Assembly (NCBI GenBank): GCA_040220235.1 | Contig: JAVJTO010000006.1 | Direction: 5' to 3' (one strand) | Source: Coleofasciculus sp. B1-GNL1-01 | GTDB taxonomy: Bacteria; Cyanobacteriota; Cyanobacteriia; Cyanobacteriales; Coleofasciculaceae | DNA: 64,000 nucleotides | Shown: piece by piece, positions 32,244-50,356 of the stretch | How the letters are laid out: each line of letters begins with the position of its first letter | How positions within the stretch are numbered: the stretch's first letter is position 1 | Made by a program: the position numbers and the translations under genes | Notes under the pieces: generated by a model | Database searches by the model: none | Seen by the model: only the letters and a program-made list of their open reading frames with translations | What the model was told of the DNA's origin: nothing

Positions 32244-32249
32244 AGATTC

Positions 32250-32483: not shown

Positions 32484-33308
32484 ATGCCAATACATCATCA
32501 AGATTTTAACTATTTACGCCAATTAGTACGCCATCATTCCGCCATGGTTTTGGATGCGGATAAAGCCTATTTAGCCGAGTTACGCTTAACCCCTCTGGCG
32601 ACGCAAATGGGATTTATTTCTCTAGGGGAAATGATTGCCAATCTGCAAACGCAACCCTTTAATCAACGCCATGTCCAGGTGGTTGAAGGAATGCTGTTGA
32701 CGGAAACATCCTTTTTCCGCGATCGCTATCCCTTTGACGCCCTTGCCAACGCCATTCTGCCCGAACTCCTAGCCAAACGGCAAACCCAACGAACCTTGAA
32801 TATTTGGTGTGCCGCTTGTTCGAGTGGTCAAGAACCCTATAGCATTGCCATGCTACTGCATGAAGAGTTTCCCGAACTGCTGAACTGGAAACTCCGATTA
32901 ATTGCCACCGATCTCTCCAATGAGATCCTCAACCGTGCTAAAGCCGGACTCTACAGTCAGCTTGAAGTGACACGGGGACTTCCCCTTTCCTTGTTAAATA
33001 AATACTTTCAAAATAAAGGAAACCAGTGGCAAATTTGTGATAGGATACGCCACCGAATTGAATTTCAGCAACTTAATTTGGTTACTCATTCATTTACCCA
33101 ATTCCATAAATTGGATATTATTTTTTTACGCAACGTTTTAATTTATTTTGATTTAACCAACAAAAAAGCCGTATTAAAAAAAATCAGGACAAGTCTCGCG
33201 CCGGACGGTTATTTATTTTTAGGCGGTGGGGAAACCACCTTAAATTTAGATGACTCCTTTGAACGGGTGCAAGTGGATAAAGCGGTGTGTTATCGTCAGC
33301 GTCGATAG
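32484..33308 (+). CDS. cheR: Chemotaxis methyltransferase CheR
   Basis: Motifs ETSFFRD, IWCAACSSGQEPYS and RNVLIYF. Confidence 0.96.
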   Translation: MPIHHQDFNYLRQLVRHHSAMVLDADKAYLAELRLTPLATQMGFISLGEMIANLQTQPFNQRHVQVVEGMLLTETSFFRDRYPFDALANAILPELLAKRQTQRTLNIWCAACSSGQEPYSIAMLLHEEFPELLNWKLRLIATDLSNEILNRAKAGLYSQLEVTRGLPLSLLNKYFQNKGNQWQICDRIRHRIEFQQLNLVTHSFTQFHKLDIIFLRNVLIYFDLTNKKAVLKKIRTSLAPDGYLFLGGGETTLNLDDSFERVQVDKAVCYRQRR

Positions 33309-33414: not shown

Positions 33415-36400
33415 CTAATCAATCCTGACACGGAAGCGGATAAACCCAGTATTCTCAGGAGCAGTATTACGAATGTTCCCTAAATCCACAAACACTGAAC
33501 CATTAGGATTGTTGGAGTTGGGACAGGGAGGAGCATTTACACTGTTGAGAGGAGAGAAAAAGGTTCCCTTATCCTCATCTGGGCTATTGGTTTGTGAGAT
33601 AGTTGATCCGTTCCGCTGTAGGGAAATGCCCCGACTGGCGGCAAAACTGTCAGGGATAAACGTCGTTCCCTCTGGGATGGCATCACAGACTCGGATGTTA
33701 GTCACAGCTTGTCCTCCATCTGAGAGAAAATAAATGGTGTATTCGACTTCATCTCCACTTTGTAAAGATGCTTCTGAACCTATCTGAATCACACCCTGCG
33801 GCTCTCCGTTCGGAAGCTGAGACCATCCAGGTGCATTATCATCATCATTATTGGGATCATCAACAAACGTGTTGAAATTAATCCCGCTAATCGGGGCACC
33901 ATCTCTCGTGACATTGGTAATTCGCTTGACTAAACGTAGATTGGGTTGTGTTGCTAAAGGAATGGTCACACTGGCTTGATCATCTTCATTGGGATCATTG
34001 TTTCTAAATGTGGCATCTGGATCACGTTGGTTAGCCGCACTAATCTCAGCGGTATTCGTGACTGGATCGGTTGTATTTAAGGTAGCAACAATATTTACAG
34101 TGGCAGTTTCCCCACTGGCAAGAGTGCCAACTGACCAAATTCCTGTATTGTTGTCGTAGCTACCTCGACTGGCATTAGCGGAGACAAAGGTTAATCCTGA
34201 AGGGAGTCGTTCTGTGATACCAACACCTGTTGCTGTGGCTGGTCCATCATTCGTCAGAATTAGTGTGTACGTTATATTTTGTCCGGGACTAATAGTTGTT
34301 GAATCAACTGTTTTCAGAAGACTCAAATCCGCCAATTCTTGGGGGAGCGTCACACTCGCTTGATCATCTTCTCCTGGAACGCCATTAGCTGGTATGGAGT
34401 CGGGGTCTAGTTGATCCGAACGACTCACTTGAGCTGTATTCGTCACGGGTTGGTCAGTATTCACCTGAGCCGTAATTTGCAACGTGGCACTTGCCCCATT
34501 GTTGAGGTTACCGACTGACCACTCTCCTGTGTTGCTATCATAGCTGCCTTGGCTGGCTTCAAAAGAAGAGAAGGTCAATCCCTCCGGAACTTGTTCACTC
34601 ACAGCGACATTAGTTGCTGTATCGGGTCCGTCATTCTGTAGGGTGACGGTGTAAGTGAGGCTTTCTCCGACACTGGGGTTAGTATTACTGGCAGTTTTAC
34701 TCAGAGAGAGGTCGGCTACCTGGGTGGGTAGATTGAGGCTAGCTTGATCATCTTCATTGGGTTCATTATTCCCCGGAGTGGAGTCGGGGTCAGGTTGGTC
34801 GGATGCAGTAACTTGAGCGGTATTGGCAATAGGTAGGTTATTCACTGTGCCTGTCACTTGCAAACGGACAGTTGCCCCACTAGCGAGTGTACCCACTGAC
34901 CAAATTCCGGTGTTGCTATCATAGCTGCCTTGGCTGGGGTTGGCAGAGGAGAAGGTCAATCCCTCTGGCACTTGCTCAGTCACTGCCACATTGGTGGCGG
35001 TACTCGGTCCATCATTCCGCAGGGTGACGGTGTAGGTGAGGCTTTCTCCGATACTGGGATCAGTGTTATCGGCAGTTTTGCTCAGGGAGAGGTCAGCTAT
35101 CTGGGTGGGTAAGTTAAGGCTAGCTTGGTCATCTTCCTCAGGTTCGTCGTTCCCCGGAGCGGAGTCAGGGTCAATTTGGTCGGATGCGCTGACTTGAGCT
35201 GTGTTAGTAATGGGTAGATTATTCACTGTTCCGGTTAGCTGCAACGTAGCGTTTGCACCGTTGTTGAGGGTACCCACTGACCAAATTCCGGTGTTGCTAT
35301 CGTAGCTGCCTTGGCTGGGGTTGGCAGAAGAGAAGGTCAATCCCTCTGGCACTTGTTCAGTCACTGCCACATTGGTGGCGGTATTCGGTCCGTCATTCCG
35401 CAGAGTAACGGTATAGGTGAGGCTTTCTCCGATACTGGGGTCAGTGTTATTGGCGGTTTTGCTCAGGGAGAGATCAGCTACCTGGGTGGGTAGGTTGAGG
35501 CTAGCTTGGTCATCTTCATTGGGTTCATTATTCCCCGGCGTGGAGTCGGGGTCAGGTTGGTCAGAGGCGCTAACTTGGGCGGTGTTGGCAATGGGTAGGT
35601 TATTCACTGTTCCGGTTAGCGCCAAAGTAGCGCTGGCACCGTTGTTGAGGTTACCCACTGACCAAATTCCAGTATTGCTATCGTAGCTGCCTTGACTGGG
35701 GTTGGCAGAGGAGAAAGTCAATCCCTCTGGCACTTGCTCAGTTACCGCGACATTAGTGGCGGTATCCGGTCCGTCATTCTGTAGGGTGACGGTGTAGGTG
35801 AGAGTCTCACCAATACTGGGGTCATTGTTATTGGCGGTTTTGCTCAGGGAGAGGTCAGCTATCTGGGGGGGTAAGTTAAGGCGAGCTTGATCATCTTCGT
35901 CTGGTTCATTGTTCCCCGGAGTGGAGTCAGGGTCAATTTGGTCGGATGCGCTGACTTGAGCCGTGTTGGTAATGGGTAGGTTATTCACTGTTCCGGTTAG
36001 CGCCAAGGTAGCGCTGGCACCGTTGTTGAGGTTACCCACTGACCAAATTCCTGTGTTGCTATCATAGTTGCCTTGGCTGGGGTTGGCAGAAGAGAAAGTC
36101 AATCCCGGCGGAACTTGTTCACTCACCTCGACATTGGTGGCAGTATCAGGTCCATCATTCCGCAGTGTGACGGTATAGGTGAGGCTTTCACCGATACTGG
36201 GGTCAGTGTTATTAGCAGTTTTAGTTAGAGATAGGTCGGCTAACTGGGTAGGCAGGTTAAGGCTAGCTTGGTCGTCTTCGTCAGGTTCGTCGTTCCCTGG
36301 TGTGGAGTCAGGATCAGGTTGGTCAGAGGCACTGACTTGAGCCGTGTTAGCGATGGGTAGGTTATTCACTGTTCCGGTTAGCTCTAAGGTAGCGCTTGCG

Positions 36401-37782
36401 CCATTGTTGAGGCTACCAACTGACCACTCTCCTGTGTTGCTATCATAGTCGCCTTGGCTGGGATTGGCAGAAGAGAAGGTAAATCCTGCTGGAATTTGTT
36501 CAGTCACCGCGACATTAGTGGCAGTATCCGGTCCGTCATTCCGCAGAGTGACGATGTAGGTGAGATCTTCACCCACATTAGGATTGGTATTGTTGACTGT
36601 TTTGCTTAGGGATAGGTCGGCACTCGGAGTTGGTGTTATGGTTAAGCTGTTTTGGTCGTCTTCGCTGGGTTGATTGTTCCCTGGAGTGGAATCAGGATCA
36701 AATTCGTTTGATGTATTGACCTGCGCTGTATTTGTGATCGGTTGACTCGTATTAAGTCTAGCCGTAATATCTAGCGTGGCGCTATTACCTTGTTCTATGG
36801 GTGTATTAAGTGTCCAGATAGCTGTCGTCGGATCATAGTCTCCTTGACTAGGATTGTCACTAATATAAGTTAATCCAGAAGGGAGTGATTCGAGGATTGA
36901 GACATCAGTAGCAGGACAGGGACCTTGATTAGTTACTCTTACTCTGTACGTCAGTTCATCGCCGACAATAATTGGATCGCTAAAACTAGCATCTTTTTCT
37001 AATTCTAAATCTGCTTCGGCGTCAAAACTAATGTTAAACAGACCAATAGCTTGTGGATCGGGATCAGGATTAGGGTTGTTTGGAGTTGGTTGAGAGCTAG
37101 GACCATTTTCATAGAAGATTGTAAACTCATCAATAGTAATTTCACCAAAATCAACCTTAACAGTTCCCTGAGCTGTATCATTCCTACCAACGCCTGTACC
37201 TAGAGCGACATTCCCTGTTGATGAGCTAGATGGTAGTAAGTCTGGAAAACCTTGTTCATCCAACTCTTCTTCAGTCGTACTCGTAAGAGTAGGAGCAGGT
37301 ACTTCCACACCATTATTGAAGCCTCTAACGGTCACTTGATCCTGCCAATTGGGAGGATTATCATCCTCATCCACATCAAATATCTGGAAATTGACTAGAG
37401 GTACTGGGCTGTCTAACTCAACGCGTACAGTTACCCCTTGACCTGTTTCGGTTGTATCCATTCTGAGGACTAGCGCTTCTACATTTTCACCTAAACCTCC
37501 GTTAAATATTCCTGAAATATCATCCGGTAATGTTATCCCCCGAAGCTCATCATCAACAAGGATATTCAGAGGATCTTCAATCGTAATAGTAGCATTTACA
37601 TCTTGCTCACAACCCAAGTTTTGAAATGTTTGCGAGGTGTCACCTGTGGGCCACTCAACACCAGGCGCACTCCAATTTAATTCTGGCGTAACTGTTTGTG
37701 CTTTAACAATGGTTTGGTTAAAGAAAGTTCCCAGACTCAGTAAGGTTCCAAGAGTTCTTTTAAAGAAATTAGAATGATTCAT
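33415..37782 (-). CDS. Large acidic secreted protein with 8 DUF11 Ig-like repeats and a conserved C-terminal domain (putative adhesin)
   Basis: Signal-peptide-like N-terminus; eight ~127-aa units ADL.L.KT...TYT....N.GP..AT...DPDSTPGN...EDD. Confidence 0.9.
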   Translation of the reverse strand: MNHSNFFKRTLGTLLSLGTFFNQTIVKAQTVTPELNWSAPGVEWPTGDTSQTFQNLGCEQDVNATITIEDPLNILVDDELRGITLPDDISGIFNGGLGENVEALVLRMDTTETGQGVTVRVELDSPVPLVNFQIFDVDEDDNPPNWQDQVTVRGFNNGVEVPAPTLTSTTEEELDEQGFPDLLPSSSSTGNVALGTGVGRNDTAQGTVKVDFGEITIDEFTIFYENGPSSQPTPNNPNPDPDPQAIGLFNISFDAEADLELEKDASFSDPIIVGDELTYRVRVTNQGPCPATDVSILESLPSGLTYISDNPSQGDYDPTTAIWTLNTPIEQGNSATLDITARLNTSQPITNTAQVNTSNEFDPDSTPGNNQPSEDDQNSLTITPTPSADLSLSKTVNNTNPNVGEDLTYIVTLRNDGPDTATNVAVTEQIPAGFTFSSANPSQGDYDSNTGEWSVGSLNNGASATLELTGTVNNLPIANTAQVSASDQPDPDSTPGNDEPDEDDQASLNLPTQLADLSLTKTANNTDPSIGESLTYTVTLRNDGPDTATNVEVSEQVPPGLTFSSANPSQGNYDSNTGIWSVGNLNNGASATLALTGTVNNLPITNTAQVSASDQIDPDSTPGNNEPDEDDQARLNLPPQIADLSLSKTANNNDPSIGETLTYTVTLQNDGPDTATNVAVTEQVPEGLTFSSANPSQGSYDSNTGIWSVGNLNNGASATLALTGTVNNLPIANTAQVSASDQPDPDSTPGNNEPNEDDQASLNLPTQVADLSLSKTANNTDPSIGESLTYTVTLRNDGPNTATNVAVTEQVPEGLTFSSANPSQGSYDSNTGIWSVGTLNNGANATLQLTGTVNNLPITNTAQVSASDQIDPDSAPGNDEPEEDDQASLNLPTQIADLSLSKTADNTDPSIGESLTYTVTLRNDGPSTATNVAVTEQVPEGLTFSSANPSQGSYDSNTGIWSVGTLASGATVRLQVTGTVNNLPIANTAQVTASDQPDPDSTPGNNEPNEDDQASLNLPTQVADLSLSKTASNTNPSVGESLTYTVTLQNDGPDTATNVAVSEQVPEGLTFSSFEASQGSYDSNTGEWSVGNLNNGASATLQITAQVNTDQPVTNTAQVSRSDQLDPDSIPANGVPGEDDQASVTLPQELADLSLLKTVDSTTISPGQNITYTLILTNDGPATATGVGITERLPSGLTFVSANASRGSYDNNTGIWSVGTLASGETATVNIVATLNTTDPVTNTAEISAANQRDPDATFRNNDPNEDDQASVTIPLATQPNLRLVKRITNVTRDGAPISGINFNTFVDDPNNDDDNAPGWSQLPNGEPQGVIQIGSEASLQSGDEVEYTIYFLSDGGQAVTNIRVCDAIPEGTTFIPDSFAASRGISLQRNGSTISQTNSPDEDKGTFFSPLNSVNAPPCPNSNNPNGSVFVDLGNIRNTAPENTGFIRFRVRID
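34330..37020. repeat. Intragenic ~381-bp tandem repeats encoding DUF11 domains
   Basis: Highly similar units, e.g. 34930 vs 35311 (381-bp period). Confidence 0.9.
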
Positions 37783-37957
37783 AGTTTTAGGAAATTTTCC
37801 AATTCGTTCATTAACTTGACTACCTAGCCATCACAGGAATTATGCCCCAAAAACAAGCTCCGAAAAATCAGCTCGTAAGTTACTGATTAAGTCATCCCGG
37901 AAAACTTATTGTCAGTGACTCATATTTGCTGGAATCTATTGGGACTTTTCCTAACTC

Positions 37958-39025
37958 CTAAAATTCAATTTGCAAGTCCGTTTCTTGGTCTTCAAAAATA
38001 ATCTCTAAGCCTCTGAGATCCTGGAAAATAATTTCCACGCGGCGATCGCGTGCGTAATCCACAACGCTGCTACCTGTTGTCCGGCGCTGGCTTTCGCCGA
38101 AGGATCGAATCGTCATTCGTCCCGGATCGATTCCTTGACGCAATAGATAATTCCGCACCGATAACGCCCGACGTCTAGCTAAGGCTTGGTTGTAGGCGAC
38201 ACTGGCGCGGGGGTCAGTGTGTCCTTGCAGTTCAATGGTAAGGAAGGGATATTCTTTGAGAACCGCCGCCACTTGATCCAGTATCGCTGCACTCTCTGGC
38301 GAGATATCCGAACGATCTAGGGCAAAATGCACATTCCGAGGAACGCGCAGCGTCAAGGGTTGTTGAACGGGTGGAGGTTGAACGGGTGGAGTTGGTTCTG
38401 GGGGAGATGGCGGCGGCGTTTGGCTGAGACATCGGGGAATTACAGGGGGTAGAGGTTCTGGGTTAGCCGGAATTGTACCATCTGAAGACTTCACCACCGC
38501 ATTCAGGGCAGGTTCTGATGTGCCGTCTTGGGGGTGAGTCGCGATCGCACTTATGGTTTCCCCAGGCTGTAACCCCGTCAGCGTAACGCTAAATTGACCC
38601 TCGGCATCGGTTATTGTCGTGCCAATGGGTTCATTTAGTGGACCATAGACACTATCGGCGGCTTCCCTGACTCGATAGAATTCCACCGTTGAACCGGGTT
38701 CAGCTTGACCCAATACTTCTAGCTGATCGCCCAACTGAACCAACTCATCGGAGACAAATTGCGGGGCATTTATCCCATTATTCCCTGTGGTCTGGCGTTG
38801 GTACTTAGTGGTACGGGGGGGATTATGACCATCCCCAACTTGGAAATGAATCGGTTCCACATGTTGCTGGGCATTCAGGTCAATACTCAACCCTTCCAAC
38901 CCTGCAAACCGATTGGTTTCAATCACATTGCCATAGGTATCTGGGTAAGCCGTCAGTACGACACTTGGTCTTGGTTGATAGGTGATTTTATTCCCCATGA
39001 CAATGGTTGACGTATTTTTTGGCAT
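37958..39025 (-). CDS. N-terminally truncated duplicate of the OmpA-domain protein (possible pseudogene)
   Basis: Near-identical to the C-terminal half of 42086-44344. ATG 39025 lies 4 nt after the upstream stop. No signal peptide. Confidence 0.75.
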   Translation of the reverse strand: MPKNTSTIVMGNKITYQPRPSVVLTAYPDTYGNVIETNRFAGLEGLSIDLNAQQHVEPIHFQVGDGHNPPRTTKYQRQTTGNNGINAPQFVSDELVQLGDQLEVLGQAEPGSTVEFYRVREAADSVYGPLNEPIGTTITDAEGQFSVTLTGLQPGETISAIATHPQDGTSEPALNAVVKSSDGTIPANPEPLPPVIPRCLSQTPPPSPPEPTPPVQPPPVQQPLTLRVPRNVHFALDRSDISPESAAILDQVAAVLKEYPFLTIELQGHTDPRASVAYNQALARRRALSVRNYLLRQGIDPGRMTIRSFGESQRRTTGSSVVDYARDRRVEIIFQDLRGLEIIFEDQETDLQIEF

Positions 39026-39029
39026 TGAT

Positions 39030-42000
39030 CTAATCAACCCTGACGCGGAAGCGGACAAACCCCACATTATCCGGAGTTGTAATTGGCACATCACCCAGAT
39101 TAATCAACACTGATCCATTCGGATTGGTGAGGTTTGGACAGGGAGATGTGACAGGACTTAGAGGGGGGAGAAATTCTCCGCGATCGTCTTCTGATTGATT
39201 ACTTTGGTTGGTATTAGTTCCGCCTTGATTCACTAAAATTCCTTGACCTGGATTAAAACTATCCGTGATAAACGTTGTCTCTTCTGGAATAGCGTCGCAG
39301 ATAGTGATACCGTTCGCCGGAGCTGTACCATCGGACAGAAAGTAGATGGTGTATTCTACTTCGTCCCCACTTTGGAGCGATGATTCTGAGGGTAAGGAGG
39401 AAATCCCCACGGGTTGTACTGAGGTTTGACTGAGTATGTTGTCATCTTCATCTTCTGGGTCATCTTCAACTGTGTTGAAGTTAACTCCACTAATTGGTGC
39501 GCCATTTCGGATAATATTCGTAACTCGCTTGACTAAACGCAGGTTGGGGTTACCCAAAGGTTGGACTACGAGCAATGTGGGTTCATCATCCCCAGTTCCT
39601 TCTAAGTTACCCTGGTCAACGCCATCATCTGATATTTGGGGCACATCTCCTGTTTTGGCAAAAGCATCGGTGATAGACTCGTCTACCGTACCCCCATTTG
39701 ATCTGGCGACGGCTTGGTTGCGAATTTCCGCTCCTGCGGCGGCGATTACTTCTGCCTGGTATTGGATCACAACTTGACCCCCGTCCGCACCCAGGGTTCC
39801 TGAGTTATTCAGGTTTGGATCACTGGTGCCGTTATAGGTAGAGTTCGCTGTCACCGTTGTCCCTGCACCACTGGCAGTGAAATTGTAACTACCTTCGACA
39901 AACTGCAAGCTAGTGGTATCGATTTCATCAACGGCTTGGAAGTCGGTGATCGGGATTGAGGGATCGGAGTTGGTGTAGGTAATTGTGTACTCGACAATAT
40001 CACCCTGGGTCAACGAGCCACTGCCATCGGTATCCTGAGAGAGTTCGACGGATTTAATTCCCACCGGTTGAACTGGACTCGGTTCAATCGTGGTGTCTTC
40101 TGGGTCAGTGTTATTGTCCTCATTGGGGTCTAAGGTATCATCGGGTGGGTCAACGGTTGCGGTATTATTCAATGTCCCAGATGCTGTTGGAGAAACGGTA
40201 CCATTTACCGTAATCGTGGCGGTGGCACCGACATTGAGGTCTACAGTCAAATCAATGGTGTTGCCCGTACCACTCGCTGTACCACAAGCCCCTGTATCCG
40301 GAGCTGATGTGATCTCACAATTCCAGGTAACGTTAGTAATATCGTCGGGTATCGTATCGGTGACTGTGGCGCCAGTGACATCTGAGTAGGTTTCTCCCTG
40401 TGGCGGCTGTTCATTGGTTACGGTGAGGGTATAGGTGATCTGTTCCCCAGCCACGATGGGGTCAGGCTGATCGGTTTTAGTAATGGAAAGATCTGCCACC
40501 TGAACCAGGATACCCTCTTGCAGTCCAAGCGGTGTGGAAGGAACGTTAATCCAAGTGTCTATGCCTTTTTCATTACCAAAGTCAGAACTGAATACATGAC
40601 CGCCGCCACTACTATCTTCCCCCTCAGGTAAGACAGTCTCGCCGCCTACTGGTGTATCGTCATAATAGATAATGGTTTCATCTCCAGACGGACCATTGAG
40701 TCGTAGTCGTCTAAGGATAATGCCATTAGGATTGTTTTCAGCATCGATGAAGGGGAAATGCGCTTCACCGGCATTGATTTCTATTGTGGCTTGGTAGGGA
40801 ACACTATTGACGGGAACTGGATTTCCTTGACCATCTAGTCCATCCCAAAATACTTGGTTTGAGCCGGCAACTGTTCGACCGATAAGCTGGCGATCTATAC
40901 CATCATCAAACATACCATTGTTATTCAAGTCAATAATGATGCTATAAGTTCCTGGCACATTGGCGTCAAAATTAAAATTACCACCTAATGTTTGACCTAC
41001 TTGATTAGGAGTCCCGTCAGTCCCGGTAAACGTAAAGTTGCTAACCTCAGGAGTCACCAAGTCCGGTCGCAAGAATGTTTCACCATTGCGAGTCATGGCT
41101 GAGGCAGGCATGTTCATAGCGGGCTGATTCAGGAAAACCTTATGGGTGATATCATTAGTCGCCTCGTTGTCAGATTCACCCGACGGATCGAGTAAAGTGC
41201 TGCCCTCAAGGATCTCATCTTGATTAATAACGATCTCACTTTGATTAATGGATTCAAAACTCGGTTCACCCGTAGTCGAATCCAGAAATCCTTTACTATT
41301 GGCAAAAAAGATAAAGCCAAAGGGGTCGATACCATTCAGGTCGATTTCGTACTGATAACCCTGGTTGGTTTGGATTGTGAGTTGAGAATTGAGACTCCTA
41401 CCGTTGCTTCCCATGTTTAGAGCCAAATAGTTGGCAAAGACTCGACCTGGGATTGGACTGCCTGTACTATCGACTACGGTGACATCCCAGGCGGCTATAA
41501 AACCGACATCTTCTTCTTGTGTCCATTCCTCTCTTGCCCCGATAGGAGCTGGATTCTCGTTACTACCTTCGTTAGGGCTAATAAATTCTATTTCCCAAAT
41601 TCCCGTTTGACCTCCTTGGACAGTAACCTGACAGGGTGTATATGATGCTGGTGGATTTCCCTCACCAATAGCTTCTTCTGTCGCTAGATTGGGAATCAAA
41701 CCTGTTCCGGGATCAGAGCTACTACAAGTATTAGTAGAACCATCGGGTTCGGGTGCAGTATACCTAATATCACCATCACCAATCCCGATCGCACTAGAGC
41801 CAAGATTGATTGTTTCTCCTGCCCGAACGTATACCTGAATAATCGTTCGACGGGGTATGCCTGCGCTATCATCATTACGATACTCTAAGTAAGGGCGATC
41901 GCCTCCATTGTCAATTAAGTCTGCACTCCCTTCAGCGCGGACTCCCTGAGTCCAACCCAACCCCATGAAAAGGGCAAGAAAACCTAGGAACCATCCTTGT

Positions 42001-42086
42001 TTAAACCTTTTGTGTCCTAATTGCATTCGGTTTACCTGTGCCATTAGGGGAGCCTTTTGATCACCATTCATGGGTAAACTAGCCAT
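39030..42086 (-). CDS. Secreted DUF11-domain protein with the shared C-terminal domain
   Basis: Signal peptide ...GVRA-EG, ADLSITKTD DUF11 unit, and C-terminal PNLRLVKR...GFVRFRVRVD. Confidence 0.88.
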   Translation of the reverse strand: MASLPMNGDQKAPLMAQVNRMQLGHKRFKQGWFLGFLALFMGLGWTQGVRAEGSADLIDNGGDRPYLEYRNDDSAGIPRRTIIQVYVRAGETINLGSSAIGIGDGDIRYTAPEPDGSTNTCSSSDPGTGLIPNLATEEAIGEGNPPASYTPCQVTVQGGQTGIWEIEFISPNEGSNENPAPIGAREEWTQEEDVGFIAAWDVTVVDSTGSPIPGRVFANYLALNMGSNGRSLNSQLTIQTNQGYQYEIDLNGIDPFGFIFFANSKGFLDSTTGEPSFESINQSEIVINQDEILEGSTLLDPSGESDNEATNDITHKVFLNQPAMNMPASAMTRNGETFLRPDLVTPEVSNFTFTGTDGTPNQVGQTLGGNFNFDANVPGTYSIIIDLNNNGMFDDGIDRQLIGRTVAGSNQVFWDGLDGQGNPVPVNSVPYQATIEINAGEAHFPFIDAENNPNGIILRRLRLNGPSGDETIIYYDDTPVGGETVLPEGEDSSGGGHVFSSDFGNEKGIDTWINVPSTPLGLQEGILVQVADLSITKTDQPDPIVAGEQITYTLTVTNEQPPQGETYSDVTGATVTDTIPDDITNVTWNCEITSAPDTGACGTASGTGNTIDLTVDLNVGATATITVNGTVSPTASGTLNNTATVDPPDDTLDPNEDNNTDPEDTTIEPSPVQPVGIKSVELSQDTDGSGSLTQGDIVEYTITYTNSDPSIPITDFQAVDEIDTTSLQFVEGSYNFTASGAGTTVTANSTYNGTSDPNLNNSGTLGADGGQVVIQYQAEVIAAAGAEIRNQAVARSNGGTVDESITDAFAKTGDVPQISDDGVDQGNLEGTGDDEPTLLVVQPLGNPNLRLVKRVTNIIRNGAPISGVNFNTVEDDPEDEDDNILSQTSVQPVGISSLPSESSLQSGDEVEYTIYFLSDGTAPANGITICDAIPEETTFITDSFNPGQGILVNQGGTNTNQSNQSEDDRGEFLPPLSPVTSPCPNLTNPNGSVLINLGDVPITTPDNVGFVRFRVRVD

Positions 42087-44344
42087 TACCTATCTCCTCC
42101 CCTAGATTCAATTTGCAAGTCGGTTTCTTGGTCTTCAAAAATAATCTCTAAGCCTCTGAGATCCTGGAAAATAATTTCCACTCGGCGATCGCGTGCGTAA
42201 TCCACAACGCTGCTACCTGTTGTCCGGCGCTGGCTTTCGCCGAAGGATCGAATCGTCATTCGTCCCGGATCGATTCCTTGGCGCAATAGATAATTCCGCA
42301 CCGATAACGCCCGACGTCTAGCTAAGGCTTGGTTATAGGCGACACTGGCGCGGGGGTCAGTGTGTCCTTGCAGTTCAATGGTGAGGAAGGGATATTCTTT
42401 GAGAACCGCCGCCACTTGATCCAGGATCGCTGCACTCTCTGGCGAGATATCGGAACGATCTAGGGCAAAATGCACATTCCGAGGAACGCGCAGCGTCAAG
42501 GGTTGTTGAACCGGTGGAGTGGGTTCTGGGGGGGGTGGAGGTGGCGGGGGCGTTTGGGTGAGACATTGGGGAATCACGGGGGGTAGGGGTTCTGGGTTGG
42601 GCGGAATTGTACCATTTGAGGATTTTACTACCGCATTTAGGGCGGGTTCTGATGTGCCGTACTCCGGATCAGTCGCGATCGCACTTATGGTTTCCCCAGG
42701 CTGTAACCCTGTCAGGGTAACGCTAAATTGACCCTCGGCATCGGTTATTGTCGTGCCAATCGGTTCATTTAGTGGACCATAGACACTATCGGCGGCTTCC
42801 CGTACCCGATAGAGTTCCACCGTGGAACCGGGTTCAGCTTGACCCAATACTTCTAGCTGATCGCCCAACTGAACCAACTCTTCGGAGGCAAATTGAGGGG
42901 CATTTATCCCATTATTCCCTGTGGTCTGGCGTTGGTACTTAGTGGTACGGGGGGGATTATGACCATCCCCAACTTGGAAATGAATCGGTTCCACATGTTG
43001 CTGGGCATTCAGGTCAATACTCAACCCTTCCAACCCGGCAAACCGATTGGTTTCAATCACATTGCGATCGCTATCTGGATACGCCGTTACCACCACACCG
43101 GGTCCCGGCTGATAAGCGATTTGATTCTCCCTAACTTGGTGATTATTTCCCATCAAATACACCGCCGCCCGTCGCAGGCGTCTGCCATTAAAAATAATTT
43201 GGTTTTCGCGAATTTGTACCGCCCCTTCGGGTTTAAATAAATAAACCCCACTGCCATCATTCCCACAAATTAAATTCCCGGTAATTTCGGAATTATCAAT
43301 CACCCCTTCCAAGCGAATCGCATCGGGCATTCCATCAATGCCATTCCCGACAATAATATTTTCGCTCACCTGTAAATTATTGGCTTGTACAGAGGTAATA
43401 ATCGCACTGCCATCATGGTCAGTAATTCGATTGCGGTAAACTCTTGTGCCTAAACTATTAAACACATAAACCCCAAACGCTGACCTGTTTTCTGGCATTT
43501 CCCCATCCGGGGGAATTCCCAACCAATTAAACTCAAGATTCACATCTTGAGGCGGAACATTTTCCGGATAAAAGGGAAACCGATAATTAGGTGGTTCTTG
43601 CTGACTAATATCCGGGGGCGGTGAGGCATGGGCAATAAAAATATCCGCCGGAGGAGTGGCTAAAGTTGTCTCGTTTACGGCTTTAAAGCCATAAATACTC
43701 AAGCCTCGCACCGTTACACCATCCGCCACAATTGTTAATCCCCGCAAAATTGACTGACCGGGTGTCGGAGTAATAGTGACAATGGGTTGAGGAATGGCAA
43801 TTTCCGCCGTGGGTGAGTTTGTCGGATCATACCCCGGTTGGGTAGTCCCATCCACCACGAGTCCTGGACTTGCCAACGGGGGCAATAATTCAGTCAGATA
43901 AATCGTGGTGTCTTGCGGGGGTAAATTAAACTCAATTTGGGGCGATTGTCCAGGACTGGAACTAACCAACGTTCTTTCAATATCACTTAATTGATTAACT
44001 GTCAATTGACCATTTGTTAGTTCAATCGCTTCCCGTAAAGTGAGAAATTCATCGGGCGCGATACTATCCTGAGTGCTATTAACAATCACCCGTAAACTTG
44101 GGGATTGGGCTGTCGCTAACGTTGGCAATGTTAAGACACTGGTTAACGTTAAAGTTTGTAGTAAGCGCTTTAGCGCTTCTGGCACTAAAGTGCCGACTAC
44201 GAACAGGGGGTTTGTAGTAAGCGCTTTAGCGTTTGTAGTAAGCGCTTTAGCGCTTCTGGCACTAAAGTTTGGAGTCAACACTTTAGCATTTCTGGCACTA
44301 AAGTGCCGACTACGAACACGGACATATTTTTGATTGAACACCAT
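42086..44344 (-). CDS. Right-handed beta-helix + Pro linker + OmpA C-terminal peptidoglycan-binding domain protein
   Basis: VHFALD, GHTD, YNQALARRRA, DRRVEI; N.I..N beta-helix repeats; GAGGAG RBS before ATG 44344. Confidence 0.9.
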   Translation of the reverse strand: MVFNQKYVRVRSRHFSARNAKVLTPNFSARSAKALTTNAKALTTNPLFVVGTLVPEALKRLLQTLTLTSVLTLPTLATAQSPSLRVIVNSTQDSIAPDEFLTLREAIELTNGQLTVNQLSDIERTLVSSSPGQSPQIEFNLPPQDTTIYLTELLPPLASPGLVVDGTTQPGYDPTNSPTAEIAIPQPIVTITPTPGQSILRGLTIVADGVTVRGLSIYGFKAVNETTLATPPADIFIAHASPPPDISQQEPPNYRFPFYPENVPPQDVNLEFNWLGIPPDGEMPENRSAFGVYVFNSLGTRVYRNRITDHDGSAIITSVQANNLQVSENIIVGNGIDGMPDAIRLEGVIDNSEITGNLICGNDGSGVYLFKPEGAVQIRENQIIFNGRRLRRAAVYLMGNNHQVRENQIAYQPGPGVVVTAYPDSDRNVIETNRFAGLEGLSIDLNAQQHVEPIHFQVGDGHNPPRTTKYQRQTTGNNGINAPQFASEELVQLGDQLEVLGQAEPGSTVELYRVREAADSVYGPLNEPIGTTITDAEGQFSVTLTGLQPGETISAIATDPEYGTSEPALNAVVKSSNGTIPPNPEPLPPVIPQCLTQTPPPPPPPPEPTPPVQQPLTLRVPRNVHFALDRSDISPESAAILDQVAAVLKEYPFLTIELQGHTDPRASVAYNQALARRRALSVRNYLLRQGIDPGRMTIRSFGESQRRTTGSSVVDYARDRRVEIIFQDLRGLEIIFEDQETDLQIESRGGDR
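44158..44317. repeat. Cluster of GTAGTAAGCGCTTTAGCGC-type palindromic REP-like units inside the 5' end of the OmpA-domain gene
   Basis: Units at ~44158, 44214, 44235 and 44281; related intergenic copies at ~13215 and ~33319. Confidence 0.85.
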
Positions 44345-44347
44345 TTC

Positions 44348-47300
44348 TCACTCCTCACTCGTGGGATTTGCCGCTGGTTCATTATTCGCCACGGGCTGTA
44401 CTTGAGATTCTTCCTGTTGCGGGGGTGGGGCAACTTTTTGCCGTCCAAATCCACCAAAGAGTTCATTCACCTTAAAGGTGACATTTAAATAAGGACCCCC
44501 TTCGGAACGATACCCGGTAAAATCTCGGTCATCGACACTACCGAAGCTATAGCCCACCCCAACTCGTAAATCAGGGGTGACATAGTACCCCGTTTCTAGC
44601 GCCCAACCCCATTCATCAAAATCGACCGAGGGTTGACCAATCCAGCGCCCTTCTACCGCTAAATCCATCCGGTATCCCAAGCGATAGGTGATGCGTGACT
44701 GTCCCAAATAAATGGTGCTACTATTGCTGAAATTGTCAGCTAAATCTGTGGTACTGCGACGTAGGGCAAATTTCCCATAAAATTCCCACCGCCAATTGGG
44801 TGCATAAATCCCTTCACCAGACAAGACATGATCATTGGAACCTGTACCACTCCCAAAGAGTAAGGTATCGGGAATTGTAGACGGATTTTTGCGATATTCG
44901 TATCGAATTAAGGCATTAAAACGGTCATCATAAGGATTGCGGTAGGCTAATCCCAACTTGACCGACAACGTATCGTCTAAGTCTTCTAAAAGTTGACTGG
45001 CTGCACTCGCTTGTTGGTAACGGAACAAAGCGGTTAAGGAAGGAGAAACCTTACCCAGCGCCGCCGCCGAAATTACTGTGTTATCGCCAGCCGAACTATC
45101 CCGATGTTCCAACCGCGCTGAGGCTTTAAAGTCAGGATTGGCAGTATATTCAACCCCGACGCTAAAGGAATCCCGTTCCGTGAGTCCCAACGACGCCGCA
45201 CTTTGACCGACAGCATAAGGTTGAGAAAAGCGATCGCCTGCGGCTGTAGACTCAAACACATCATCGGCAATGCGTTCGTAACCCAAGTTAACGCGCAATC
45301 CTGGCGCTAGCAATATACCATGTTTCAGTCCCAATGCCGCTTGTCCAGTCATCCCATTCATCCCACCGATAACCGAATATCGGGAGGAAATAGATGTATT
45401 TTCCCCTAACTGATATTGGGTAATCGTTTCCAGACTGGTAATCGAATTATCGTCTAAGAGTCCGCCATCGAAAAACTGATGCGCCAATCTCAGCGTTACT
45501 CCCGGTTCCACCGCCCAATCTAAACCCACGGTGGTGCGGTTGGGATAGAGGGGGTCACTATCATCCAAGTTCAATTCGTTTTGCGCCCGGAAGGTGAAAA
45601 CCTCGTTCAGGGGAACATTCAGGCGAGACACCAATTGACTGGTATTCGTATCAAAGGTATCGCCCAAATTGTCTTCTCGGGAACGGTTGACATATTCTAA
45701 ACTCAGGTCAGATGTGCCAATTTGTTGTTGTACACCCGCCCGGAATGTGGTCAAGCTATTATCCACCCGACTACCGGGTAAAGCCTCACTCGCCCGATTA
45801 AAAATATTATCGGGATTGAAGGGGTCAAAAAACTCAACCAAGCTACGGTCTTCGGCTGCGGTACCAAAGTTATCTTCGTGATCAAAACTCACTCGCACAT
45901 TAGTATTTTCACTCAATTGTGCCGCTACGTTTGCGCCATAGCGAGTTTGACCGGGAGTAAAACTGGTGGTGGCGTTATTCGCAAACCCTTCTTCAACGGA
46001 ACGGTAATACGCCCGCCCTTGAATCCTATCTGAAAAGGCACTGACTGCTTCCAACCGATAGGCATTTCCCGTCACCAATCCCATGAAGGGAGACTCATTC
46101 GTGGAATGACCATATTCGCCAACAATCCGTCCTTGCGTCCCCAAGGAAACTAAGAAGTCCGCACCATAGAGTTCAAAGTTTTGTAACCCTTGGTTTTCCC
46201 GTAGATAGGTGGTTCCTATCCAACGTTCTTGTTGAAAATCTTGGGAGAAGTTATATTGCAACCGTCCCCCATAGATATTGGTGTCGTCATCCGCTTCAAA
46301 CTGATACGTCACCACAATTCGCCGCACTAAGGTATTACCAAAGGGGTCAAATTCCGTGGCTCGCATCGGACGCCGAAACAGGAGTGAGCCTCGGTCATAA
46401 TCAATTTCGTAATCGGGACCACGATAGAGGGCTTTGCGTTCGATGACGGTACCGGGGCGATTCAGTTCTTCGGTTTCAATGTAAACGTTTTCACTTCCGG
46501 GAATCAGCAAGCGACGCGAAAGGAAGTAGTACCCACTGGTGCCATCGGGAAGAATGGTATCCCGTTGAAATCCTTCCACATCAGGGCTAAACAGGGCAGT
46601 AACTTGCAGATTTCCCAGGTTATAATTCCCTTTAAATCCGTGTAATGCCCTCGCTGTAGCCGTAAATTCCTGGGAAGCACGGGTAAATTCGGTGGTATTA
46701 TAATCCCCCCACATCGCATAGTCGGGTTCTGCGCCGGGAACCGGAGAGGAACGCTCGAAGCGCAGATATACGCTGTCTTTGGATGGAGTAATATAGTCTA
46801 CTGTGGAACTATCCCCATATACGGGGTATTGGTTCTCACAGAACTGGGGTCCACGAAATAGGCGGGTGATCCCATCACAGGTTTCATTCAATGGGCGATC
46901 GCTATTATATGCCCCGGTGAATAACCATTCCCCAATTCGACCTGTGGCAAAAATAGCACTATCTAGGTCAGCTTCTAGACCATCATCAATCAAATCGGGA
47001 TTGAGAAACTCGCGGCGACTTTCCCAAAAGTTGCTTCCTGCTTCCCCAATCCGCAAATTAATCACCCCAGAGACTAAGGAAGGGCGCAGGTGGGTGACGA
47101 ATTCGATTTGGGTATAGGCTTGGATGGGTTCGGAAAAGGTGGGAATCGCAGCACTCAGCGTACTCTCTTCTAGGGTGATTTGTTCGATGTCGGGGACACC
47201 GAGTCGTTCAATCGCCGCTCGAATCCGAACTTTCTGGGCGTCTAACCCGGATTGCAGTCGGGCGCTAAATTGCCCTTTTTTCGCCAGAACTTGAAAACCG

Positions 47301-48481
47301 AGTTGATCATCGTCATAGTCAGCCCCGACAAATTCCCCGGCTGCTGCGGTGAGGGTGACAACTGCATCTTCTTCAATCAGTTCCCCGCTTTCTCGGGTGA
47401 TACTCCCTTCAATCGTAATCGTCGATCGACCATCAGCGGGAACACGCGGATCACCAACAGGGGCGAGGCTAATTTGAACGTCGGTTTGGTCGGCTATAGG
47501 GTCAACGGTAACCTGGAGACTAACTGGTGTGCCGTTATCTGGGGCAACAGTAATGGTATTGTCACCTTTTTTGAGCGGGACGCCGTACCAGATTTGGGTA
47601 ACAATGGCTTGAGTTTCATCCCGTTCTATTGTCGTCCGGGTTTGAGCAGAAACAGGTTGTTGATTAATCGTCACCTGAACCTGACTATCGGCGTGATACT
47701 GAATCATCAAGTCCGTTGTGCGATCGCCAATTGTACCGGGTTCCGGAGTGAGAATGCGAATATCACCGGGAGCCAATTGCAGCCCGTTATTAATCGTTTG
47801 TTGCGCCGTGCGGCTGAATTCATCTTGGAAGGCTTCAAGTTCCGACTCGGCGGTTTCTGCTTCCCCAGTTTCCTGGGATAGATTATCCGTTAAATCCGCC
47901 CCTAAAGATTGGTTCTGCTGTACCTCATTCCCCTCATCCCGAATCACCTTGGGTAAAGGTGCTAAAGGCGACTCCATCCGCGCAGGTTCAATATTGCCAA
48001 AGTCTTCACTACTCTGGGATTGGGCAATACTTTCGGACAGGGTATTGGCGAAGTTGTCCGATTCAGACGGTACAAGATTAGAGGGAGAAGGCTCTATCGT
48101 TTGTGTTTCACTCAACTGGGATTCTTCCTGAACCCCATCACTGGAAATGGCTAACTCGTGCTGGAGATCAGGTAAGTTCGAGGTGCTGAAAGCATCGATA
48201 TCACTGCCTGGTTGGTGATCCTGTCGAACCACTGCCTTCCCCAGTTGCCAATCCTCGGTTTCTGATTCCGGCGATACCTCATCGGCTTTCGCCACCGGAA
48301 TGATGCCAATAATCCCCACCAGAATCACTAGCAATCCTAAAGACATCGAAGACAACCATCGTTTACCGGGAACACCGTAATCATCGATACCTTTGAGTAA
48401 CGAAAAATAAAGCGTGAATCTCAGTTGTTTGGCTTGACTCGAGTTCTCCCAACGGTTCTGATCCTGAGTATTATTCATCAC
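44348..48481 (-). CDS. Large predicted outer-membrane beta-barrel protein with periplasmic Ig-like N-terminal region
   Basis: Signal peptide (...PVAKA-D), acidic linker, Ig-like PADGRS segment, and a long C-terminal region of amphipathic aromatic-ended beta strands. Confidence 0.75.
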   Translation of the reverse strand: MMNNTQDQNRWENSSQAKQLRFTLYFSLLKGIDDYGVPGKRWLSSMSLGLLVILVGIIGIIPVAKADEVSPESETEDWQLGKAVVRQDHQPGSDIDAFSTSNLPDLQHELAISSDGVQEESQLSETQTIEPSPSNLVPSESDNFANTLSESIAQSQSSEDFGNIEPARMESPLAPLPKVIRDEGNEVQQNQSLGADLTDNLSQETGEAETAESELEAFQDEFSRTAQQTINNGLQLAPGDIRILTPEPGTIGDRTTDLMIQYHADSQVQVTINQQPVSAQTRTTIERDETQAIVTQIWYGVPLKKGDNTITVAPDNGTPVSLQVTVDPIADQTDVQISLAPVGDPRVPADGRSTITIEGSITRESGELIEEDAVVTLTAAAGEFVGADYDDDQLGFQVLAKKGQFSARLQSGLDAQKVRIRAAIERLGVPDIEQITLEESTLSAAIPTFSEPIQAYTQIEFVTHLRPSLVSGVINLRIGEAGSNFWESRREFLNPDLIDDGLEADLDSAIFATGRIGEWLFTGAYNSDRPLNETCDGITRLFRGPQFCENQYPVYGDSSTVDYITPSKDSVYLRFERSSPVPGAEPDYAMWGDYNTTEFTRASQEFTATARALHGFKGNYNLGNLQVTALFSPDVEGFQRDTILPDGTSGYYFLSRRLLIPGSENVYIETEELNRPGTVIERKALYRGPDYEIDYDRGSLLFRRPMRATEFDPFGNTLVRRIVVTYQFEADDDTNIYGGRLQYNFSQDFQQERWIGTTYLRENQGLQNFELYGADFLVSLGTQGRIVGEYGHSTNESPFMGLVTGNAYRLEAVSAFSDRIQGRAYYRSVEEGFANNATTSFTPGQTRYGANVAAQLSENTNVRVSFDHEDNFGTAAEDRSLVEFFDPFNPDNIFNRASEALPGSRVDNSLTTFRAGVQQQIGTSDLSLEYVNRSREDNLGDTFDTNTSQLVSRLNVPLNEVFTFRAQNELNLDDSDPLYPNRTTVGLDWAVEPGVTLRLAHQFFDGGLLDDNSITSLETITQYQLGENTSISSRYSVIGGMNGMTGQAALGLKHGILLAPGLRVNLGYERIADDVFESTAAGDRFSQPYAVGQSAASLGLTERDSFSVGVEYTANPDFKASARLEHRDSSAGDNTVISAAALGKVSPSLTALFRYQQASAASQLLEDLDDTLSVKLGLAYRNPYDDRFNALIRYEYRKNPSTIPDTLLFGSGTGSNDHVLSGEGIYAPNWRWEFYGKFALRRSTTDLADNFSNSSTIYLGQSRITYRLGYRMDLAVEGRWIGQPSVDFDEWGWALETGYYVTPDLRVGVGYSFGSVDDRDFTGYRSEGGPYLNVTFKVNELFGGFGRQKVAPPPQQEESQVQPVANNEPAANPTSEE

Positions 48482-49392
48482 TGATCCTCCCCATAAGCCG
48501 GTGTCACCGCAAAGTTCATCCGCGCCATCCCTCCAGGTGAAAGTCGCACCAAGCGAGATTGGCTATTCCCTTCGATGAAATAGAGATTGGGAGCGAGGCT
48601 GTATCCGGGCAAACTGCTCAAATCCAGCGTTCCACTGCGATTTCCGGCGATAACGTTGGCTAATGAAAACAAACCATCGGTATCCGTGGTAATCCGGTTA
48701 CCATCATCCATGTAAATTACCGCATTCGGGACTCCCGGTTCTCCCGGTTGTTGTTCGCCATCAAAGTTCTTATCCACGAACACTCGCCCCACGATGGTGC
48801 CGCAATCGGATAAAATTCCCGGTCGAATCCGCATCAAAAAGCTGGCGATATTACTGCGCCGTTCCTGGGCAACATTTCGACCATCGCCCCGAACCGCATC
48901 GGGTGTGATCACCGCCGCATAGATAATATTCAGGGTTTGATTGGGTTCTAAACGAGGAAAGGTAAACGCGACATTGCGCCCATCCCGTTCGGCTGACGGT
49001 AATGTTACGGGTTCTGTATTAGTGCCTGTAGTAATCGAACCTTGCAACGACTCCGGCAAAAATCGCACCCCCAAGGGCGATCGATCCGTTACCACAATGT
49101 CACTTGCAGGGGCTTCTCCGGTGTTTCTCAGGGCGAGGCGGTACACCACCGTATCTCCCGGTTCAGCAGCAGCGCGATCGGCTGTTTTAATCAGCTCTAG
49201 AGCCGCCTGACCTGCCACTAGGGAGGTTTCGTTAGAGTTAACAATACCTGTAGGTAAATTAGCACCGGACGCCGACGCTTGATTTTTAATTTCTTGGGCA
49301 GTAGCCGATGAAGTCCCAGTGAAGAATAATGCAGCAATAAGCGTAGTTAGCAGCCGATCATAGACCCCTAACGTTGCCGTTAAAGATTTCAT
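48478..49392 (-). CDS. DUF11 + SdrD-B-like domain secreted protein
   Basis: Signal peptide, LELIKTADR..AEPGDTVVY DUF11 unit, and GRVFVDKNFDGEQQPGEPGVP. Overlaps the next gene by ATGA. Confidence 0.85.
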   Translation of the reverse strand: MKSLTATLGVYDRLLTTLIAALFFTGTSSATAQEIKNQASASGANLPTGIVNSNETSLVAGQAALELIKTADRAAAEPGDTVVYRLALRNTGEAPASDIVVTDRSPLGVRFLPESLQGSITTGTNTEPVTLPSAERDGRNVAFTFPRLEPNQTLNIIYAAVITPDAVRGDGRNVAQERRSNIASFLMRIRPGILSDCGTIVGRVFVDKNFDGEQQPGEPGVPNAVIYMDDGNRITTDTDGLFSLANVIAGNRSGTLDLSSLPGYSLAPNLYFIEGNSQSRLVRLSPGGMARMNFAVTPAYGEDQ

Positions 49393-50356
49393 CAGAAGGT
49401 AGCACCCCAAAATGGAATTGAATAGTTCAACAGTAAGGAAACTTGTTTGTCCATCAATTGACTGACAAACGTTGCTATTGACCGTGAGTTGGATTGACTG
49501 TTTTTGGGATTTTTACGAGAAACTAAGACCTTAAGACACTGTATATTAGCGTAAAATCTGTTTATCCCTTTTTATGTCGCTCCCCTTTAATTGGTTGAAT
49601 TGGTTGAATGTGTGAGTTTCAGTATATTCCCTGATGTGAATGAATGAACTCTAGCGTTAATATCAATAGTCAATTGGAGCAATTAAGTTATCGATTTTGA
49701 CTCAACCTCTAAGCGCTAAAAAGAATCTAGCCGGTTAAGCCTGCTCCAATGGATTGATAGCTAAGACCCGTTAATTTAGGTTCTCGCAGTTCATTATAGT
49801 AGCCTATGACCAATGACCTGACAAGAGGTCGTGTAGATGCCCTGATAATCACGATTATAAACCATTACTCTACTGATAGAGTAAAGCAATGAATGAGTTA
49901 TAACCAATATCACAACCCTGCCAGAGCTTGAAGTCTGGCAATTTTTTGTGACCGGGGTAAACTGCCCGAATTAAGCTATCGTAACCTATGACATCTGACC
50001 TGACAAGTCATTTTCTTGGAAAATTTACTTCATAAAGTTTTGATAAATTTTTGAGCGGTCACTGAACCAGGAACAAGGAACAGGAGCAAGTCAAGTTGTG
50101 AGCGCATCTAGCACTTTCTAACACTGCGTAATAACAGTAGCCATGAGAAATTGCTGTCATCCTCTATCTTTGGGTCTATAGTCGGAAATCCGAAACGGCT
50201 GTAGAGGTCGGTTTTGTTGAGCGATTATCAGTGACAACGCTTGCATTAATGCCTCAAACTCCCCATACCATAAAACGTTTAATTTTTGTAGGGACGTACC
50301 ATAACACGTCTCTTTTGACCATTAACGGTGATTCCTGGTTCAACGCTTTCGGTTTA

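Follow-up and report, generated by a model that had tools for sequence, protein, structure and literature searches.

How might a cyanobacterium carry large adhesin-like proteins across its outer membrane and hold them there? This question is raised by a six-gene locus of Coleofasciculus sp. B1-GNL1-01 (GCA_040220235.1, a draft assembly of 172 contigs, called G000 below), found on contig JAVJTO010000006.1 in the 64,000-nucleotide (nt) stretch that was analyzed and that we call the window. The genes, labeled in order along the minus strand, are A [310 amino acids (aa)], B (1377 aa), C (752 aa), D (1018 aa), C' (355–378 aa) and E (1455 aa). An earlier note on this DNA had described six codirectional open reading frames (ORFs) with tight junctions, and these are present at the coordinates and spacings given there. 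The answer that we consider somewhat probable is that the locus encodes a dedicated surface-display module, in which the C-terminal acceptor domain of a cargo protein would be clipped, and locked by a Lys-Asn bond, to an adaptor at a predicted 38-strand barrel.

A Putative Isopeptide Domain Split between Cargo and Adaptor

The two largest DUF11 proteins, D and E, had been described as acidic and as sharing one C-terminal domain behind different N termini. Both statements hold: the shared domains are 55% identical over 176 aa, the N termini differ, and the proteins contain 13–14% D+E and 3–4% K+R. A Pfam scan gave the same DUF11/SdrD-like, beta-helix/OmpA and DUF11-repeat domain calls as had been made by eye, with DUF11 and SdrD_B (the latter below cutoff) in gene A, no family above cutoff in gene B, beta-helix, Big_6 and OmpA in gene C, and DUF11 repeats in genes D and E. 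The features on which the argument turns are as follows.

48478..49410, minus strand: gene A, adaptor of 310 aa that likely starts at ATG 49392; after a signal peptide come the N-terminal donor hairpin, one complete DUF11/CLIPPER domain and an SdrD_B-like domain
49204..49299, minus strand: donor hairpin, gene A residues 38-69, with the putative isopeptide Asn43; assigned from conservation, a hairpin hidden Markov model (HMM) and the predicted interface
39030..42086, minus strand: cargo D, 1018 aa; a signal peptide precedes a 480-aa head that matches no known family, a DUF11-type stalk and the acceptor domain
39033..39557, minus strand: acceptor domain of D, residues 844-1018; DUF11 strands A-F, Lys853 and Asp931, with the stop codon directly after strand F
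33415..37782, minus strand: cargo E, 1455 aa; a signal peptide, a head of ~230 aa and eight complete DUF11 repeats with a 381-nt period lead up to the acceptor domain
33418..33954, minus strand: acceptor domain of E, residues 1277-1455, Lys1286 and Asp1367; 55% identical to the D acceptor

In the CLIPPER adhesin of Acinetobacter silvestris (B9T28_05395; 9IFR), DUF11 forms a Lys-Asn bond that is catalyzed by Asp within one chain, the triad being Lys715/Asp748/Asn806 (PMC12617251). The complete repeats of cargo E show the corresponding order of a Lys-strand, an acid-strand and then a final hairpin beginning I-x-N-x-A, and each of the eight has the Lys/acid/Asn set. In the domain shared by D and E the Lys and Asp strands are present, and the gene ends after strand F, without the Asn hairpin. 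The missing hairpin is the mature N terminus of gene A. The CLIPPER/DUF11 triad, with Lys on strand A, the acid on strand C and Asn on the penultimate strand, is therefore found within the complete repeats and, across two genes, in acceptor plus hairpin.

This arrangement recurs in 76 related cyanobacterial loci. The acceptor match extends to within the last 0-2 residues of 73 of 74 cargo ORFs, and the acceptor residues K10 and D88 are invariant in all 51 sequences aligned (picked from the 74 available). On the adaptor side, I4 and N6 of the hairpin show no variation among 26 short adaptors compared, 70 of the 72 adaptors have the hairpin motif (one of the others is a cut ORF and one a regex-window miss), and the SdrD_B-like domain is highly conserved. 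The hairpin HMM matches gene A and no other among the 16,293 ORFs of G000. Comparison with 9IFR aligns D88 of the acceptor with the catalytic-strand Asp, in a weak match (E 0.039), and the adaptor profile matches the same structure (E 1.5e-5).

Cofolding of the cargo C-terminal domain with the 310-aa protein, which the earlier note had proposed as a check, places the hairpin in the acceptor gap. The pair D 844-1018 plus A 38-197 scored 0.88, compared with 0.01 for the best of three controls; of 157 solved complexes, 116 attain the mark used, as do 2 of 215 mismatched pairs. The runs share at least 92% of their contacts, with a partner predicted local distance difference test (pLDDT) score of at least 90, and at the interface acceptor strands A and C pair with positions 1-32 of the adaptor segment. 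These sequence features and models identify the C-terminal domain common to D and E as one half of a split DUF11/CLIPPER isopeptide domain, which the 310-aa adaptor is predicted to complete. The domain had been interpreted as a shared sorting-like domain. That description holds insofar as the domain is shared, tracks the barrel and is also present on an unlinked gene, but it missed the split-isopeptide chemistry.

The unlinked gene is on contig C39 (G000:C39:13933-17136; L002 7934-11137, minus strand), so that G000 contains one barrel, one hairpin and three acceptors. Its 1067-aa product combines the head of D with the stalk type of E, and it sits between glycosyltransferase-like genes, with unrelated neighbors and no linkage to the barrel. 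Unlinked cargo genes are also present in genomes G002 and G093; seemingly similar cases in G127, G251 and G261:C23 were dropped because further adaptor and beta-helix genes adjoin them and the barrel search scored just two candidates in each genome. Related cargoes have varied heads, some of them lectin-like below cutoff, and range in length from ~450 to 2200 aa. A 93%-identical relative, L003, carries A, B and C with only one cargo, a different one, and the cargo genes are therefore exchangeable. The acceptor domain likely acts as both sorting signal and anchor for swappable adhesins, three of them in G000, as far as sequence and models indicate.

Predicted Structure of the Giant Barrel

The fold check proposed for gene B, consisting of structure prediction and Foldseek, was run and agrees with the claim that this protein contains a very large barrel, of about 38 predicted strands.

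44348..48481, minus strand: gene B, giant outer-membrane barrel protein (predicted), 1377 aa; a signal peptide and a low-complexity linker, followed by two Ig domains (~residues 236-463) and the barrel
44474..47077, minus strand: predicted 38-strand beta-barrel, gene B residues 469-1336, from the DSSP string of the AlphaFold2 model
46286..46582, minus strand: beta domain of 99 residues that interrupts the barrel between strands 7 and 8; candidate plug or cap, on the long-loop (outer) side by parity

AlphaFold2 modeled residues 236-1350 from a 68-row alignment with pLDDT 80 and a predicted template modeling score of 0.73. The model shows two Ig domains followed by amphipathic strands in which short turns alternate with long loops. 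The 38 strands were counted by hand from the DSSP string and not taken from tool output, strand 24 being read from two broken DSSP segments. Some databases label gene B homologs as TonB receptors. We rejected a 22-strand TonB-dependent transporter on the grounds of the strand number, the N-terminal Ig domains, the internal insertion and the lack of a match to a TonB-receptor family.

Foldseek and VIA (pdb, wide) searches with the gene B model found no full-length match among solved structures, the best whole-model TMq in the PDB being 0.19. The best barrel match is FimD (Z 14, root-mean-square deviation 7.7, 307 of 1115 residues). Only partial matches to smaller barrels were thus obtained, which does not prove a new fold for the modeled protein. 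The second Ig domain resembles the Ig domains of intimin/invasin and GH2 (Z 12-13). The inserted domain, folded alone, reached pLDDT 93 and matches phage neck/tail domains (best Z 10.1) as well as a domain of SprA (6h3i_A; Z 8.5, root-mean-square deviation 2.1, 75 residues aligned); SprA is the sole cellular membrane protein among its seven matches at Z of at least 8. The SprA model TIGR04189 is also weakly touched by 2 of 32 gene B homologs, in the inserted domain (E 0.0045 and 0.29). We take this likeness, which comes from modeled structure, as a lead for shared parts and not for type IX secretion system (T9SS) membership. Searching PDB sequences for the barrel, or for the inserted domain by itself, gave nothing useful, a Pfam/NCBIfam scan of the inserted domain found no family, and in atlas searches the barrel and the cargo D head each retrieved unnamed clusters only. 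The closest named homologs of gene B are from Coleofasciculus (98%), and the family is wide, with 2052 representatives at E<=0.001 among 1.84 billion.

Linkage of Adaptor, Barrel and Cargo across Genomes

Whether the genes keep company in other genomes had been left as a further check, and they do. Gene A lies just upstream of gene B in 72 of the 76 loci (71 within 400 nt), and in the remaining four the contig ends <200 nt before the barrel gene. A cargo with an acceptor domain follows the barrel in 58 of the 63 loci that have at least 6 kb downstream. Linkage of this kind is not chance. Across 301 genomes sampled from the phylum the barrel is present in 44 and a full-length acceptor (E<=4e-8) in 43, all 43 of which are barrel-positive; five other genomes give weak partial acceptor matches only. 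The adaptor was found in 43 of 43 barrel-positive genomes searched.

Fusions connect the adaptor, and the adaptor alone, to the barrel. In the cyanobacterium G115 a single ORF (L079 5657-9562) combines hairpin, DUF11, SdrD and barrel but has neither of the two Ig domains. Among distant long barrel homologs, 19 of 19 scanned carry DUF11 and several also carry SdrD_B, OmpA, SPOR or SLH; the typical chain runs hairpin, DUF11, SdrD, sometimes OmpA/SPOR/SLH, Ig and barrel. The hairpin motif occurs within residues 6-75 in 40 of 48 distant homologs of at least 1500 aa, compared with 21% per random window. An Acinetobacter plasmid carries a fused adaptor-barrel gene, then an OmpA gene and then a cargo gene, the same gene order as here. 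Proteins resembling the DUF11/SdrD adaptor half of a fused homolog were seen on plasmids of Deinococcus radiodurans (NC_000958.1 42869-44209) and Thermus thermophilus, both tractable hosts.

Loci with and without a Rod Gene

The cyanobacterial loci are of two types, one with a long adaptor (~510 aa, 42 loci) and one with a short adaptor (~310 aa, 30 loci and the present one). Upstream of the adaptor, all 42 long-adaptor loci encode a 600–900-aa rod protein that has both a hairpin and a cut-off C-terminal domain and is able to polymerize. A 187-aa acceptor-only protein (L019 6521-7084 and 41 similar loci) always lies between the rod and long-adaptor genes and is a candidate cap or chaperone of the fiber form. 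Neither protein is encoded in any of the 30 short-adaptor loci in the sequence covered (24 with at least 3.5 kb upstream), and a hairpin at the start of a cargo occurs in 0 of 29 cases in short-adaptor loci versus 6 of 40 in long-adaptor loci.

Searched genome-wide, the rod profile matches in 35 of the 44 barrel-positive genomes and gives no match in the eight genomes with a short adaptor only (which include G000 and one closed genome) or in G115. The rod, hairpin and small-protein profiles run over G000 found no donor-plus-acceptor protein. The only other DUF11 genes in G000, a pair at G000:C71:109847-117205 (minus strand), were considered as rods and rejected, being without the hairpin and without the cut-off C-terminal end. 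This pair has DUF11-like and SdrD-like repeats and a duplicated N-terminal module; the larger protein ends in RTX-like repeats, and the two are likely type I secreted and unrelated to the split-domain/barrel system.

In a FastTree phylogeny of 31 short-adaptor, 42 long-adaptor and 5 outgroup rows (4 loci without an adaptor were left out), the short-adaptor barrels form one clade with support 0.85. Some genomes carry both locus types. Fiber assembly, one of the functions that had been proposed for this locus, is unlikely since no rod subunit was found. The sequences and models suggest instead that the locus is likely a one-adhesin-per-adaptor display module and not a pilus.

The Beta-Helix/OmpA Gene and Its Duplicate

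42086..44344, minus strand: gene C, 752 aa; beta-helix, Big_6, Pro-rich linker and OmpA_C
37958..39025, minus strand: C', partial duplicate of gene C (3' half) without signal peptide, from nt and aa identity to C

The OmpA_C protein had been proposed as the peptidoglycan anchor of the machine. The OmpA domain is indeed present, but the protein appears to be an accessory: the beta-helix gene occurs in 20 of the 301 genomes, all 20 of them among the 44 that are barrel-positive, and often lacks OmpA. Rod-less loci carry it in 24 of 30 cases (OmpA being present in 18), rod-bearing loci in 5 of 42. From its sequence, gene C is likely a periplasmic peptidoglycan tether or helper. Extra beta-helix genes (G261:C1:373483-375021 and G251:C1:2631282-2632874) are distant from any adaptor gene found in those genomes. 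At positions 44150-44321, three copies of a 59-nt element in the 5' end of gene C lengthen the N terminus in frame; this element gives 27 matches of at least 35 nt in G000, and the true start of C is possibly downstream of it.

The fifth gene was correctly counted in the earlier note but is no new component, being a partial duplicate of gene C. Its ORF (37958-39094) encodes 378 aa, and a start at ATG 39025 would give 355 aa and a 4-nt gap to D. Positions 37963-38996 copy the 3' half of C (42106-43130) with 92.6% nt identity, the protein is 91% identical to C residues 404-746, and a scan for a signal-like hydrophobic stretch found none. Recombination through C, bringing in cargo E, likely left C' behind as a scar.

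Surroundings and Transcription

A complete chemotaxis-type cluster at 26175-33308 (plus strand), with CheA, CheW, a methyl-accepting protein, CheB and CheR by translation, is convergent with cargo E, 106 nt from its stop codon, and also borders the locus in L003. On the other side of the locus, positions 51676-52857 (minus strand) hold a 393-aa ORF with a C-terminal EGRQ repeat, which we take to be like Rpn/DUF4351-type transposase-like proteins. Promoter and terminator scans were at chance (28 vs 22.7 +/- 5.6 and 16 vs 18.5 +/- 4.6). Metatranscriptome contigs from relatives span genes A-D and barely reach gene E; these are RNA-library contigs, possibly derived from DNA, and show neither transcription nor its absence.

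Comparison with Known Systems

The locus had been proposed to encode a machine analogous to T9SS. The resemblance consists of a very large barrel, a C-terminal domain common to scattered cargo genes and an OmpA_C protein (PMC10994853), but the locus fails in tests for the SprA, PorE and T9SS C-terminal domain families. Gene B matches no NCBIfam model, TIGR04189 included (best homolog 14 bits against a cutoff of 200), and a 129-row gene B profile found no SprA chain in the PDB at E<=1. On a possible remote structural kinship of the barrel with SprA, the whole model gives TMq 0.15-0.18, and the match of the inserted domain is tied with or below those to phage tail domains. The shared cargo domain matches DUF11 (Pfam/NCBIfam) and 9IFR rather than a type A or B T9SS sorting domain, and gene C reaches 72 bits on NF052230 (cutoff 600), through its OmpA domain alone, and is not a PorE-family lipoprotein by that measure. 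The locus contains no PorV or GldLM/PorLM motor gene, the locus being what was searched for them. Searches of G000 with SprA_N, TIGR04189 and TIGR04183 were empty and carry no weight, as the controls were silent too. In T9SS, moreover, cargo is handed to PorV, whereas the sorting domain here is half an isopeptide domain that is predicted to be kept and locked (PMC10994853).

Chaperone-usher pili are similar in that an incomplete Ig-like domain is filled in by a neighbor's N-terminal extension (PMC11821415). Such completion is seen here in sequence and prediction, with a two-strand hairpin as donor. Both systems also have an acceptor-only tip protein and, for a platform, an outer-membrane barrel that contains an inserted domain. 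Usher barrels have 24 strands. The present locus differs in its ~38 strands, two-strand donor and predicted covalent lock, and in having no chaperone gene and no rod. The usher family PF00577 has no match in G000 (an Escherichia coli control was positive), nor does gene B match Usher; neither a periplasmic chaperone nor a polymerizing rod is encoded in the locus.

Engineered pairs such as SpyTag, SnoopTag and DogTag are isopeptide domains split into tag and catcher. Those pairs are man-made, and the present one would be a natural tag and catcher used for sorting and anchoring. The Sulfolobus thread reportedly relies on donor-strand exchange locked by an intermolecular isopeptide bond. The BsaA fibers of Clostridium perfringens are locked in this manner as well, as proposed here (10.1101/2024.11.04.621531). 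Both differ from this locus in their folds, their monoderm or archaeal hosts, their homopolymeric nature and the lack of an outer-membrane barrel. The CLIPPER adhesin of A. silvestris belongs to the same DUF11 (PF01345) family and has the same Lys/Asp/Asn triad, with a head-stalk-anchor layout and an OmpA-like anchor in a diderm (PMC12617251). There the bond lies within one polypeptide, whereas in the present locus cargo and adaptor each hold part of the last domain, and a giant barrel is encoded alongside. The terms split, barrel, secretion and cyanobact* are absent from the main text of PMC12617251. A type V autotransporter (or TpsA/TpsB pair) was rejected, as the cargo genes are separate and gene B has no autotransporter or POTRA match.

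A Model for Display and Its Alternatives

In the model that we favor, signal-like N termini would bring all parts into the periplasm by Sec. The cargo acceptor, cut after strand F, carries Lys and Asp in its sequence, and the mature adaptor begins with the Asn hairpin, which cofolding predicts to complete the acceptor domain. Because the intact CLIPPER domain forms a Lys-Asn bond, the reunited triad would be expected to form an isopeptide bond between the chains. The SdrD-like domain of the adaptor would stay with the barrel, as the gene overlap and the natural fusions suggest. Cargo would then pass through the wide barrel and stay at the surface. Each adaptor would hold a single cargo, since G000 yielded no subunit that combines donor and acceptor. 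The beta-helix/OmpA protein may tie the assembly to peptidoglycan as an accessory, and the function of the module would be adhesion.

Several points weigh against this model. The cofolded chains are halves of a known domain, so a pass may reflect likeness to solved CLIPPER/CnaA folds; it is also silent on the covalent bond, and since the runs used their own alignments the calibration holds roughly. The genomes surveyed are related and not independent samples, for which reason counts are given without P values, and the barrel search scored two candidates per genome. A nearby cargo is lacking in 5 of the 63 loci, and G115 has its fused adaptor-barrel but no acceptor match in the genome. Peptidoglycan-binding domains lie between SdrD and barrel in fused homologs, and the adaptor could therefore be periplasmic. 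The locus has no energy-source or chaperone gene. A very divergent rod gene could be missed by profiles, and the long-adaptor group is unsupported as a clade (0.009), so the direction of rod loss is not shown.

The alternative that survives best, though we consider it unlikely, is that the barrel is a pedestal only, with cargo leaving by vesicles or another general route and snapping onto a surface-exposed adaptor. Passage through the lumen is a step that we infer, and the inserted domain could seal the barrel. The cyanobacterial outer-membrane step is described as uncharacterized, and reporter proteins with a signal peptide only do get out (PMC13297417). However, the width of a 38-strand barrel far exceeds what anchoring requires, full acceptors are restricted to barrel-positive genomes (43 of 43), and the rod-bearing relatives would need a growth point.

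Next, and likewise doubtful, comes a periplasmic envelope strut, with the barrel in the outer membrane, adaptor and cargo pointing inward and OmpA gripping peptidoglycan. The Ig domains of gene B resemble the periplasmic D00-D0 domains of intimin, and OmpA, SPOR or SLH adjoin SdrD in fusions, both of which would suit such a strut. Yet the varied heads and lengths of the cargoes, some of them with lectin-like heads, the stalks of protease-resistant-type repeats and the swapping of cargo genes between close strains are traits of exposed adhesins.

Quite improbable, in our judgment, is export and display as in the favored model but with noncovalent hairpin pairing, so that cargo could exchange or be released into the mat matrix. 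The bond is deduced from residue conservation, some DUF11 domains are described as having no isopeptide bond (PMC12617251), which also counts among the points against the favored model, and one adaptor gene serves three cargoes. Against this, all three triad residues are invariant despite being split over two genes, and BsaA has intermolecular isopeptides after strand exchange (10.1101/2024.11.04.621531). Finally, a pilus like that of the rod-bearing loci, with its rod gene undetected, or a decayed remnant of one, is very improbable: every long-adaptor locus has a rod with donor and acceptor, G000 is a draft and the locus contains a broken duplicate, but the rod, hairpin and small-protein profiles find nothing further in G000, the C71 genes lack hairpin and cut-off end, and 30 related rod-less loci with intact genes form a clade.

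Significance

The statement that this is not a characterized cyanobacterial system agrees with our full-text searches, which turned up no description. No paper was found on the barrel, the split DUF11 domain or the locus; that coverage extended to few subscription papers, and the supplement of PMC12617251 might list truncated domains. The largest solved barrel is given as the 36-strand SprA (10.64898/2026.03.07.710327), and PMC13297417 states that the outer-membrane crossing of Sec-exported proteins in cyanobacteria is open.

We regard as evenly balanced the wider proposal that the locus represents an undescribed diderm secretion and anchoring system. In it a 38-strand translocon, larger than SprA and perhaps a remote relative of it, would export any protein that ends in half an isopeptide domain and staple it covalently to a barrel-bound adaptor. 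The rod-less clade would be the form of this machine that does no more than secrete and display a single adhesin, while fibers are built elsewhere, and it would supply one missing cyanobacterial route of outer-membrane export. If this is true, a new secretion route would exist in the form of a widespread barrel of 38 strands that has its own C-terminal sorting domain, and diderms would have, in a naturally split isopeptide domain, a new and sortase-free means of covalent anchoring. Three proteins and one peptide-level prediction (Lys853-Asn43) make the rod-less form the simplest one for testing. The system could explain adhesion in mat-building Coleofasciculus, and it would offer a surface-display tag for cyanobacteria.

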